From Thermoproteota archaeon (GTDB lineage Archaea; Korarchaeota; Korarchaeia; Korarchaeales; Korarchaeaceae), in contig JALSOH010000006.1 in assembly GCA_026986575.1 (NCBI GenBank), positions 96,001 through 160,000 on the forward strand: DNA of 64,000 nucleotides, given 5' to 3'. The notes under the pieces were generated by a model. It made no database searches. It had not been told where the DNA came from and saw only the letters and a list, made by a program, of their open reading frames with translations. A program made the position numbers and the translations under genes. This document shows positions 26,051 to 29,843 of this stretch, piece after piece (positions within the stretch are counted from its first letter, which is position 1; the number at the start of each line of letters is the position of its first letter).

Positions 26051-26127
26051 TGGCGCCCGGGCCGGGATTTGAACCCGGGTCTGGGGCTCGACAGGCCCCT
26101 ATGCTAACCGGGCTACACCACCCGGGC
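26051..26127 (-). tRNA. tRNA-Asp(GTC), intronless, CCA encoded
   Basis: Reverse complement reads GCCCGGGTGGTGTAGCCCGGTTAGCATAGGGGCCTGTCGAGCCCCAGACCCGGGTTCAAATCCCGGCCCGGGCGCCA: cloverleaf, anticodon loop CT-GTC-GA, T-loop GTTCAAATC. Confidence 0.97.
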
Positions 26128-26151: not shown

Positions 26152-26164
26152 ATTATAAATATTT
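26152..26164 (-). promoter_or_regulatory. TATA box of tRNA-Asp
   Basis: Minus strand AAATATTTATAAT about 25-30 nt upstream of the tRNA 5' end. Confidence 0.65.
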
Positions 26165-27006
26165 CACCGTTTCCGCCTCATGCTTTCATAGACCAGCTTC
26201 ATCTTCAAGGCGTCCCTTTCTAACAAGGGGGACTCAGAGATCACCAGCCACCGGACGTCCTTCTCCACCATGAGCTGAGCTAAGGGCTCGAATTCGGGGC
26301 CATAGCCAGAACCCAACTCGTGGTGCATCCTCTCTCCGTAACCCGACTTGGTGGGCTCCACCTCGGTGAAATGCACGACAAGGCCGTCTAATGTGCCCAA
26401 CCTGCCCTCTATCTCATCTAGGATCCTCTCATAGTCTTTCCTACCCCTGATTATGCCTCCATACCTCACGTGTATATGGGCGAAATCCACAGTCGGCACG
26501 ACACTATCAACACTCTCGGCCATGGTGAGCACGTCGTCTAGGGAACCTAGTTGCGAGGGCTTCCCCGTGGTCTCCGGGCCGAGCTCGACTTGGAGTCCTC
26601 TGCCCTTTATCACGCTGTGGAGATGCTTTAGAGCATTTATTGCCATCTTCAGAGCTTCATCTCTTCCGAACTTACCGTAGTACCCTGGATGGAATGTGAT
26701 GTGCTTCGCGCCTATTCTGTGGGCAGCCACGGCCGCGGATATGATTCTCTCAATGCTTGCTTCTCTCTTTTTGGGATCCTCAGATGCCAAGTTTATGGCA
26801 TAGGGTGCGTGAAGTGAGAGCATTACATCGTTTTCCTCCGCCTGCTCCCTTATCCATCTGAGCAGCTCCTTGCTCTTCGGAATAGATCTGACTGCTTGGT
26901 ACTCCATCCCATCCAGCCCTACGCTCCTCAGATATGTGAATGCCTCTTCCTTAGGGGCATCTAATGGGTAACCAGCTAGCCCAAATCGGGTTCTATCGAT
27001 GTCCAT
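26164..27006 (-). CDS. nfo: Endonuclease IV-like TIM barrel (archaeal AP endonuclease)
   Basis: SLHAPYAINL, FHPGYY, GPETTGKPSQLG, DFAHIH, GERMHH, ISESPLLE.DA. Confidence 0.85.
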   Translation of the reverse strand: MDIDRTRFGLAGYPLDAPKEEAFTYLRSVGLDGMEYQAVRSIPKSKELLRWIREQAEENDVMLSLHAPYAINLASEDPKKREASIERIISAAVAAHRIGAKHITFHPGYYGKFGRDEALKMAINALKHLHSVIKGRGLQVELGPETTGKPSQLGSLDDVLTMAESVDSVVPTVDFAHIHVRYGGIIRGRKDYERILDEIEGRLGTLDGLVVHFTEVEPTKSGYGERMHHELGSGYGPEFEPLAQLMVEKDVRWLVISESPLLERDALKMKLVYESMRRKR

Positions 27007-27087
27007 CCCTTCCTCGATCTCCCGTACAAGACATTATCCTTACACCCTTCGCCTCCTTTTACTGTTAAAAGTGTTTGATATAGGGTG

Positions 27088-27101
27088 GAAGGGTTATATA
27101 T
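27088..27101 (+). promoter_or_regulatory. BRE/TATA promoter of the structured RNA candidate
   Basis: GAAGGG-TTATATAT ends about 21 nt before G27122. Confidence 0.6.
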
Positions 27102-27121
27102 CCCTTCCGGTCCTATATAGT

Positions 27122-27258
27122 GGGGTCGCCCGGCCCTTGGCGGGCTTAGCCCGATGTGCGGGCTATGGCCTACCACCGAAGCGGAAGGGGCCCTAAATTG
27201 GCCCCGATCTCGGGCGTCCTCAGGACGCCTCCCTCCGGACACCGTGCCGGGCGACTCC
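27122..27258 (+). ncRNA. Unidentified structured GC-rich RNA (or structured leader of the downstream radical SAM gene)
   Basis: 13-bp terminal helix GGGGTCGCCCGGC/GCCGGGCGACTCC enclosing three hairpins; G-U pair asymmetry favours the + strand; TATA box at the expected spacing. Confidence 0.7.
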
Positions 27259-27286
27259 CCGCACCTCCACCTCCTTCGGTGATAGC

Positions 27287-29027: not shown

Positions 29028-29843
29028 ATGATCTCAGTGATAGAGATAGAGGCCGTAAGTCAGGGTGAGGGTATAGTTCCCTTCACGGGTCCCCCTCTGA
29101 GGCGTGCCCTGTTTAAAGCTCTATCATCTCAGAACCCTCTGCTGGCAAAGGCTTTAGAGATGTCTTCCAACAAGATATTCATTGAAGCCTTCCTCAGGGA
29201 CAGGAGGCAGTTACCGTGCGGCTTTCAAGATGATCTCGTGTATTCGGGATCTGAATATAGGGGATCGGTCATTATATTCGATGATAGGACTCTCGCAGAA
29301 GCTGTGAAGGGGTGGGTTTACAAGAAACCCACCATAAAGATAAGGGATGTGCCATTTAAGGTGGTGGGATACTCTTATCAGGAGATCGAGATAGAGGACT
29401 TCATACAGGATCAGCCTTGCAAGAACTTCAGGATAAGGTTCCTCACTCCCACATGCTTTAGGAGGACATCGACCCCCTATTGCTACTTATATCCGAACTC
29501 CAAGATGGTGGTCTCATCGGCATCCGCGGTCTGGAATGCGCTGTCGCCTAAGAAAGGGCCAGAGACCAGGATAATGTCCATGTGGGCCGATTTGAGTGTC
29601 GTAGAGACCGGATATGAGTTGTGCACAACGAAACCTGTCGAGATAAGTGAGGGCAGGACGTTAGTGGGCTTCATGGGCTGGGTCAATTACAAGGTGGTGG
29701 ATCATCCCGAATGGCACTCCGGCTCCCATGAGGAGATGGCCACATGGCTCAACACCTACCTGAGATTCGCGGAATTGGTGGGAGTCGGATACATGAGAAA
29801 TGCGGGATTCGGTAAGATAAGGTTCGAAGTGAAGAGGAGGTAG
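29028..29843 (+). CDS. cas6: Stand-alone CRISPR-associated endoribonuclease Cas6
   Basis: IRFLTPTCFR, GFMGWVNY, C-terminal Gly-rich loop FAELVGVGYMRNAGFGKI. Confidence 0.88.
   Translation: MISVIEIEAVSQGEGIVPFTGPPLRRALFKALSSQNPLLAKALEMSSNKIFIEAFLRDRRQLPCGFQDDLVYSGSEYRGSVIIFDDRTLAEAVKGWVYKKPTIKIRDVPFKVVGYSYQEIEIEDFIQDQPCKNFRIRFLTPTCFRRTSTPYCYLYPNSKMVVSSASAVWNALSPKKGPETRIMSMWADLSVVETGYELCTTKPVEISEGRTLVGFMGWVNYKVVDHPEWHSGSHEEMATWLNTYLRFAELVGVGYMRNAGFGKIRFEVKRR

Follow-up and report, generated by a model that had tools for sequence, protein, structure and literature searches.

The 64,000-nucleotide stretch of DNA analysed here (positions 96,001 to 160,000 of contig JALSOH010000006.1, assembly GCA_026986575.1, from a Thermoproteota archaeon of the family Korarchaeaceae; hereafter, the window) encodes a previously undescribed structured RNA. 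This RNA, which is about 130 to 150 nt in length, is read from the plus strand, occurs as a single copy and is restricted to one archaeal family. It is located in the 280-bp gap which separates the divergently oriented nfo gene from a gene encoding a radical S-adenosylmethionine (SAM) protein, where it forms an island of 72% GC in a genome of 53% GC. A GC-rich structured RNA had been placed in this gap by the original prediction, which was made from the sequence of the window without database searches, and the gap itself is confirmed here by gene models and profile matches.

Distribution, fold and selective constraint of the RNA

Homologues of the RNA were sought using BLAST and two covariance models, each of which finds it as a single copy. 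Of the 20 further genomes in the window's genus (here designated g1, with g2 to g5 representing the other four genera of the family), 17 gave a BLAST match to the RNA, and covariance model R1, built from 18 genus sequences, added one divergent homologue from the same genus, in genome G002. Applied to the other genera, R1 returned 13 to 25 bits with poor strand discrimination; being too narrow for these genera, it was replaced by model R2, which draws on 25 sequences from all the genera, roughly aligned with MAFFT, and contains only 18 pairs. Among the 151 genomes scanned with R2, exactly one copy was present in 33 of the 36 family genomes, across all five genera and including all eight family genomes absent from the training set of the model, and none was present in the 115 genomes outside the family (seven from the other families of the same phylum-level group plus 108 further archaeal genomes). 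The three family genomes without a match (G013, G018, and G034) are all 70 to 72% complete, and in G013 a contig end interrupts the locus.

The regions upstream of radical-SAM orthologues were also inspected. Collection of homologues there and assessment of their covariation had been suggested in the original prediction, and such homologues, with covariation, were indeed found. A search of named genomes with the radical-SAM protein yielded 592 relatives, of which the best 80 were kept and 77 loci examined. Among these best 80, GC-rich structured elements were found directly 5′ of the orthologue where protein identity was 56 to 59%, and no such element was found where it was 51% or lower. A GC-rich upstream region was flagged at 13 of the 77 loci, 12 of them from the window's family and the thirteenth, L067, being borderline. 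By genus, elements were found in four of five g2 genomes, in all five of g3, in the single genome of g4 and, by reading 5′ of the radical-SAM orthologue, in all four of g5. Sister families possess radical-SAM and nfo orthologues with different neighbours and no such element. Within the family, the order PUA protein, nfo, RNA, radical SAM, AAA/kinase-like protein, Cas6, and AdoMet (S-adenosylmethionine) decarboxylase is conserved, the entire block being syntenic in all five genera. One copy per genome at a fixed syntenic position rules out a miniature inverted-repeat transposable element, an alternative named in the original prediction, or other dispersed repeat.

Comparison of 19 genus sequences, placed on R1, revealed standard pairs in 98.5% of 679 cells. 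Both-sided changes were apparent at 10 of the 36 pairs, a count which was not reached in any of 500 column shuffles, and control structures in which the partner was slid by one to three columns contained zero to one such pair. The doubly changed pairs are distributed over P1 (5 of 13), P5 (3 of 7, all contributed by L037, with GUCCCC/GGGGAC), P3 (one), and P4 (one). A plain MAFFT alignment of 18 sequences pointed in the same direction more weakly, with five pairs and 20 of 500 shuffles as high. One-sided changes are throughout of the G-C to G-U or U-A to U-G kind; since such G-U pairs would turn into A-C mismatches if the opposite strand were transcribed, they identify the plus strand as the one read. 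RNAfold assigns positions 27122 to 27258 (plus strand) a minimum free energy of −82.9 kcal/mol (z = −4.63; none of 200 shuffles was as stable), and a fold of equal quality is available to the minus strand (−82.2, z −4.74), so that energy does not choose between the strands. The preference for the plus strand previously drawn from G-U pairs is, therefore, borne out by the comparative G-U pairs and not by energy.

The predicted 13-bp terminal helix, here P1 (bases 1 to 13 with 125 to 137), and the three hairpins proposed along with it, here P3, P4, and P5 (Table 1), were reproduced by RNAfold, and each helix is kept across genera with different sequences. The P4 stem occurs as GGGGCC/GGCCCC, GGGGUC/GACCCC, GGGGUCC/GGACCCC or GGGGAUC/GAUCCCC, and as CGGGC/GCCCG in g3. 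It forms part of the most widely common module, in which a short hairpin or G-run and a purine linker (AA, UGAA, AGA, or AUAAA) precede P4 with its loop C-NNN-AUU, and which is present in all 28 non-g3 sequences listed. Outside this module the architecture varies: in g3 the RNA is rod-shaped, and the long helix surrounding P4 covaries, AGGGU/ACCCU becoming AAGGA/UCCUU. The P3 stem is near-invariant within the genus, its one double change occurring in L037, and analogous hairpins of other sequence are present in g2 and g5. Similarly, CCCCC/GGGGG hairpins directly 5′ of P4 in g2, g4, and g5 are equivalent to the small hairpin CCAC-CGAA-GCGG of the window.

The helix predicted to close the junction around P4 and P5 also exists, although its proposed register, CGGA/UCCG, is uncertain in the window. 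There, the minimum free energy structure combines GGA/UCC, AG/CU, and CCG/CGG, and this short helix competes with the small hairpin CCAC-CGAA-G(C/U)GG. In eight sequences of the sister subgroup the closing helix comprises 14 to 17 bp (duplex energy, −13.8 to −22.1 kcal/mol), and one of its pairs alternates between G-C, A-U, and G-U. The single C-A mismatch recorded previously is real, being private to the window, which has GCGG where all six of its nearest relatives (L002 to L007) have GUGG. A possible small hairpin, GCCC-UUGGC-GGGC, would form at the expense of the final two P1 pairs and of an alternative CGGGC-UUA-GCCCG hairpin; each of its four positions pairs in 16 to 18 of 18 sequences, with C-to-U changes giving U-G, and it also appears in the predicted minimum free energy structure of sister sequences.

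Further pairings were considered at the same locus. At 27142 to 27165 (plus strand), the consecutive segments CGGGC, GCCCG, and CGGGC permit two mutually exclusive hairpins; L037, a divergent member of the genus, carries three concerted changes (C to U, G to A, and C to U) that preserve both alternatives. A long-range helix, CGGG(20-23)/UCCG(113-116), was proposed by RNAalifold and pairs in 98.7 to 100% of cells; it displays one-sided changes only, cannot form together with the long closing helix seen in the sister subgroup, and is left as an alternative. Kissing between the P4 and P5 loops was rejected, as the loop triplets, compared by eye, are not consistently complementary across species.

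The constraint acting on the RNA is most apparent in G003, a metagenome-assembled genome of 92% completeness in which both flanking genes are decayed. Its syntenic radical-SAM gene harbours 10 stops, retains 35% identity over the remnant and lacks an in-frame start, and no other radical-SAM orthologue was found in this genome; nfo is reduced to an 80-amino-acid (aa) fragment (residues 4 to 82). The neighbouring PUA, CoA-ligase, AAA, and Cas6 genes are intact, with 63 to 83% identity to the proteins of the window. Compared with its nearest relative, the G003 RNA is identical at 118 of 133 bases (88.7%) without a gap, the corresponding values being 53 to 61% for the 750 bases 3′ of the RNA and 73 to 75% for the 450 bases 5′ of it. 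Nine of the 15 differences are located in loops and joints, and the six in stems all keep pairing (G-U to A-U, C-G to U-G, and U-A to U-G). The B recognition element (BRE) and TATA box are retained. As read from this one assembled genome, the pattern is that of a folded plus-strand RNA which remained under purifying selection once the gene had been lost. Because the RNA body was kept where the downstream gene decayed, its main job would not be the control of that gene. The two G003 pseudogenes (loci L017 and L147) are located at about 1134 to 1379 and 1641 to 2440 in L017, and the locus is A/T-richer than that of its sister (40% versus 45.5% GC).

Table 1. Features of the RNA locus in the window, followed by the P1 strands of the genera
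Feature	Position	Strand	Basis or remark
nfo, endonuclease IV-like	26164-27006	−	divergent neighbour 5′ of the RNA
Promoter: purine-rich BRE-like stretch (27087-27093) and TATA box TTATATAT (27094-27101)	27087-27101	+	
Second A/T-rich element CTATATAG	27113-27120	+	just 5′ of the start; putative role
Structured RNA body, 137 nt	27122-27258	+	fold, covariation, homologues, column conservation 0.64-0.97
P1, 5′ strand	27122-27134	+	pairs with 27246-27258 (RNAfold, covariation)
Possible small hairpin GCCC-UUGGC-GGGC	27133-27145	+	tentative, 4 bp
P3 hairpin UAGCCCG-AUGUG-CGGGCUA	27147-27165	+	RNAfold, comparison
Small hairpin CCAC-CGAA-GCGG	27173-27184	+	overlaps 5′ strand of closing helix
P4 hairpin GGGGCC-CUAAAUU-GGCCCC	27187-27205	+	most widely conserved module
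P5 hairpin GGGCGUCC-UCA-GGACGCCU	27212-27230	+	RNAfold, covariation
Closing helix around P4 and P5, 3′ strand UCC-CU-C-CGG	27230-27238	+	pairs with about 27177-27185
P1, 3′ strand	27246-27258	+	RNAfold, covariation
Tail/spacer	27259-27286	+	CACCUCC (27263-27269), CCUCC (27270-27274), Shine-Dalgarno GGUGAU (27278-27283), then AUG
Radical-SAM gene, pyruvate formate-lyase activase-like, 355 aa	27287-28354	+	3′ of the RNA in every homologous locus
Cas6	29028-29843	+	stand-alone
P1 strands, g1			5′ GGGGUCGCCCGGC / 3′ GCCGGGCGACUCC
P1 strands, g2			5′ GGGCCGUCGGCGGCC / 3′ GGCCGCCGGCGGCCC
P1 strands, g3			5′ GCCGCCCGGCG / 3′ CGCCGGGCGGC
P1 strands, g5			5′ GGGACCGCCC / 3′ GGGCGGUCCC
P1 strands, g5, second type			5′ GGGGGCCGCUGC / 3′ GCAGCGGCCCCC

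Promoter and relationship to the radical-SAM start site

An own promoter with a start at G27122 had been predicted for the RNA, and the promoter assignment presented here, which relies on the general geometry of archaeal BRE/TATA promoters, agrees with this. The TATA box of the window begins 28 nt 5′ of G27122, the first base of P1, and equivalents exist in all genera: at each of the 18 genus loci, (G)AAAGG or AAAA is followed by a T/A octamer at the same distance from P1, and in g2 to g5 the TATA boxes, identified by reading, begin 27 to 30 nt 5′ of the first P1 base. Column conservation is 0.66 to 0.78 across the promoter, compared with 0.40 to 0.47 further upstream, and reaches 0.83 to 0.85 in the tail. 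On the grounds of this geometry, a 5′ end at the first P1 base is well supported. The second A/T-rich element, CTATATAG, similar ATATA stretches of which are present in the window's subgroup and in some others, is possibly a promoter-proximal element of the kind known from crenarchaeal promoters.

In the window, P1 is separated from the AUG of the radical-SAM gene by 28 GC-rich bases (CACCUCC-A-CCUCC-UUC-GGUGAU-AGC-AUG) which contain no A/T-rich element. As this leaves no room for a second promoter, the gene is presumed to be transcribed through the RNA, which would thus physically constitute the 5′ leader of the radical-SAM mRNA. The 3′ end of the 16S rRNA of the genome reads ...GGAUCACCUCC, and the spacer, therefore, holds two copies of the anti-Shine-Dalgarno (anti-SD) sequence 5′ of the SD itself. 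In eight sister sequences the tail is predicted to form a hairpin of −14.4 to −17.2 kcal/mol which buries the SD (GGUGGAG), the G of the AUG and the next codon, and whose outer pairs take up the last two C residues of the P1 3′ strand. The tail hairpin of the window comprises only 4 bp (−6.8 kcal/mol). The spacer of g2 and g4 is about 100 to 120 nt in length, and that of g2 pairs with the SD region in one folded sequence. In L131 and L132, which represent the second type of g5, the radical-SAM protein starts with MSLEEL... rather than M(A)WFLRPD..., and the AUG is located some 10 to 15 nt 3′ of the RNA.

Candidate roles of the RNA

We tentatively propose, as a plausible reading which could equally prove wrong, that the element is a stand-alone functional RNA which also heads the radical-SAM transcript. 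Transcription would start at the first P1 base from the strong BRE/TATA promoter, as its geometry indicates, and would continue into the radical-SAM gene. The C-rich tail, a copy of the 16S anti-SD, is predicted to fold onto the SD and start codon and would thereby damp translation, this predicted fold being partly conserved. The RNA would most likely be released, or its transcription terminated, after P1, and the freed molecule may have a role in trans, either binding protein or serving as a scaffold, as a stable RNA, the near-invariant P4 hairpin, with its purine flank, G-rich stem, and C-NNN-AUU loop, serving as the recognition element. Probably, then, the RNA is stable and functional by itself, with protein bound at the P4 module.

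Several points weigh against this proposal. The window has no oligo-T terminator downstream of P1, so that a discrete short RNA would need processing; the transcript start, the 3′ end, and a discrete species of ~137 nt are all inferred from the DNA sequence. The alignment of 19 sequences behind the covariation counts was fitted to R1, and its members are related rather than independent samples. The argument for independence from the gene depends on one metagenome-assembled genome, G003. Moreover, each of the 33 genomes which harbour the RNA has it in front of the same gene, and this arrangement, combined with sequestration of the SD, is a textbook hallmark of cis-regulators.

The main rival reading, a serious one albeit in our view rather unlikely, is that of a riboswitch-like cis-acting sensor with a multi-helix aptamer for a small molecule, e.g., a SAM-related or radical-SAM-related metabolite, in which ligand-dependent folding of P1 and the junction would set whether the C-rich tail hides the SD and AUG. 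A conserved, structured, aptamer-like element is indeed located in the 5′ leader of the gene: in five genera the RNA is always found directly 5′ of the same gene, transcription would start at P1, multi-way junctions are built from covarying stems, and a core module is kept while the periphery and the expression platform vary. The SD/AUG hairpin of the sister subgroup, furthermore, uses the last two C residues of the P1 3′ strand, and mutually exclusive pairings occur at two places (CGGGC/GCCCG/CGGGC, and the small hairpin versus the closing helix). However, the whole neighbourhood is syntenic, rendering adjacency alone weak evidence, and the overlap between P1, with its 11 to 13 GC-rich pairs, and the platform amounts to only 2 nt. 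Conservation is found largely in the stems and less in the junctions, no known riboswitch family in Rfam matches, and the RNA is present as one copy per genome at one gene only, metabolite riboswitches usually controlling several loci. In G003 a riboswitch should have decayed with its gene, yet the RNA is under purifying selection. The riboswitch reading accommodates all observations but two, G003 and the single-locus distribution. The cis-regulatory leader role originally suggested is plausible, given the inferred co-transcription in the window and the predicted pairing of the tail with the SD and AUG; G003 speaks against a purely cis-acting role. It is quite improbable, in turn, that the element is a protein-binding leader, acting either as an autoregulatory operator of the radical-SAM enzyme (a substrate mimic) or as its RNA substrate or cofactor. 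The linkage between RNA and gene is strict, the invariant hairpin stems suggest sequence-specific recognition by a protein, and the enzyme family is without an assigned function, with all NCBIfam glycyl-radical activase matches falling below cut-off. Against this, G003 has kept the RNA in the absence of the enzyme, orthologues of the enzyme are encoded at 64 of the 77 loci without a GC-rich upstream element, and the AlphaFold model resembles the pyruvate formate-lyase-activating enzyme (PFL-AE), which acts on a protein, and contains no RNA-binding domain recognisable by fold search. That model, built with 26 orthologues, has a pLDDT (predicted local distance difference test) value of 92, with PFL-AE as its nearest fold (Foldseek E value 1e-11) followed by generic radical-SAM folds; PFL-AE is also the only match of a PDB sequence search with the enzyme (E value 0.0075).

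Processing of the RNA by the nearby Cas6, as had also been suggested, appears very improbable; in this reading, the enzyme would cleave at a hairpin base and thereby free the RNA from the mRNA. Although some processing step would be needed if a discrete RNA exists, and the cas6 gene is only ~1.8 kb away in the same block in all five genera, this nearness is unspecific because the entire block is syntenic. The protein is also the sole Cas6 homologue found in the genome, whose CRISPR arrays, on three contigs, have A/T-richer repeats unlike any part of the RNA; the Rfam CRISPR-DR28 matches are at chance level (E values 1.2 and 5.3; 18 and 16 bits versus a cut-off of 35). It is barely credible that the element is a known RNA in disguise (an intron-bearing tRNA, 5S rRNA, RNase P RNA, signal recognition particle [SRP] RNA, or H/ACA guide), a mobile repeat, or a chance GC palindrome. 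The absence of tRNA genes for Ala, His, Ile, Phe, and Trp from the 34 detected by ARAGORN in the window's genome (G000) and a G3-U70-like pair in P1 of the window would favour a tRNA-like identity, but pair 3 is G-U in only 6 of 19 sequences. Covariation excludes a chance palindrome, and the single copy argues against a mobile repeat. As the original prediction had anticipated, a covariance-model scan gave no family match for the RNA: with Rfam 15 (4,227 models) at gathering cut-offs, the only hit in the whole window is tRNA-Asp at 26054 to 26127, and between 26950 and 27400, at E values up to 10, five matches score 14.8 to 18.4 bits versus cut-offs of 35 to 88.

Individual families were rejected on more specific grounds. 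For tRNA, including intron-bearing forms, neither ARAGORN nor Rfam reports anything at the locus, the terminal helix is 11 to 13 bp long and no T-loop was seen; the 7-nt loop of P4, C-NNN-AUU, varies at three positions and has no fixed U33 or purine 37, as an anticodon loop would. Canonical 5S, RNase P, and SRP RNAs are encoded elsewhere (83.8, 179.1, and 162.5 bits, respectively), with no match at the locus. Archaeal H/ACA guides possess an ACA box 3′ of the lower stem, a pseudouridylation pocket, and a kink-turn (K-turn) or K-loop; here, P1 is followed, depending on the clade, by CCGCACC, CACCUCC, CCAUUC, or UCCGGG, never ACA, and no tandem G-A motif was found by reading. A resemblance to the ZTP or "pfl motif" riboswitch (GGGUCG...CCGGGCGG) was not borne out, with no such Rfam match at the locus, and mimicry of the organism's own rRNA or tRNA was not supported, blastn-short against the whole genome giving only chance matches of 11 to 18 nt.

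Observations on neighbouring genes and related loci are recorded here. The radical-SAM protein matches Pfam Radical_SAM and Fer4_12; the name PflX (COG1313), which we presume to apply to its gene, was returned by no tool, and literature searches for "PflX" plus "radical SAM" and for "COG1313" found no paper, while in those for "Korarchaeum" plus "riboswitch" no title or abstract proved relevant. Closer to the N terminus than the canonical C147-x3-C151-x2-C154 motif, the protein bears an additional one, C97-x2-C100-x3-C104, and none of the six cysteines varies in the 26 orthologues; the second motif suggests an auxiliary metal or Fe-S site. The nfo product matches Pfam AP_endonuc_2, its NCBIfam nfo match being below cut-off. 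Cas6, in the window as in L141 to L147, has no other cas gene alongside and occupies the same place in all five genera, next to the AAA/kinase-like and AdoMet decarboxylase genes and well away from the CRISPR arrays (C6, at about 439.7 kb; C7; and C10). The five tRNAs which ARAGORN did not find are probably encoded in unusual form (oddly placed introns or split genes) or in unassembled parts. In L148 and L150 (genus g7), some 300 to 400 nt into the upstream stretch, a frame 5′ of nfo, judged GTPase/translation-factor-like from its GTP-binding motif, meets a stop, directly after which a perfect GC-rich hairpin (CUGCCUGCACGC...GCAGGCAG) is followed by resumption of coding-like sequence; this hairpin may be an intervening element inside the GTPase-like gene.

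Related systems and biological meaning

The RNA shares features with several kinds of described RNA. Like bacterial translational riboswitch leaders such as SAM-I/S-box, it is located in the 5′ leader of one gene family and is predicted to begin at the transcription start, its P1 closes a junction of several covarying helices, and its pyrimidine-rich tail can pair with the SD. It differs from these in being archaeal, in its one copy per genome, in a GC-rich P1 of 11 to 13 bp, in its survival beside a pseudogene, and in the lack of an Rfam riboswitch match. With 5S rRNA, Y RNA, and 6S RNA it has in common a size class of 120 to 180 nt, ends paired in a long helix, a strong promoter of its own, and the status of a single-copy core gene of its lineage that is conserved independently of its neighbours; unlike them, it has no terminator and runs straight into a protein gene, and it matches none of them in sequence or structure. 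The orphan noncoding RNAs HgcC and SscA of hyperthermophilic archaea are likewise GC-rich structured islands in genomes of lower GC content, but the RNA described here is not matched by their Rfam models and belongs to another lineage and architecture. Leader RNAs which are derived from 5′ untranslated regions or have a dual function resemble it in that one transcript unit would give a structured RNA and an mRNA, the RNA body existing independently, its own processing being hypothetical; we know of no archaeal dual-function leader RNA of this shape.

The DNA sequencing runs which contain the window stretch are labelled hydrothermal vent metagenomes, and no RNA run containing it was found. The RNA represents a new family well defined by its promoter, predicted 5′ end, at least five helices, covariation, and a conserved hairpin module, and it is a single-copy core gene of an entire family of uncultured, heat-loving hydrothermal archaea. 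To our knowledge, archaeal structured RNA families are few once the universal ones are set aside, and archaeal riboswitches are likewise few. The case of G003, in which the gene is dead and the RNA alive, indicates that the RNA has a value of its own, which is unusual for a leader-like element. That it is the founding member of an archaea-specific regulatory RNA class tied to a radical-SAM enzyme, be it a new riboswitch class for a metabolite related to SAM or to radical chemistry or an RNA partner (substrate or cofactor) of the enzyme, is a prospect we consider unlikely; were it the RNA partner, it would reveal a new RNA-protein system and provide the first functional clue for the widespread archaeal "PflX" proteins. 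The locus offers a concrete object for asking whether archaea use SD-sequestering leader RNAs as bacteria do, and for learning what the radical-SAM enzyme encoded 3′ of the RNA does.

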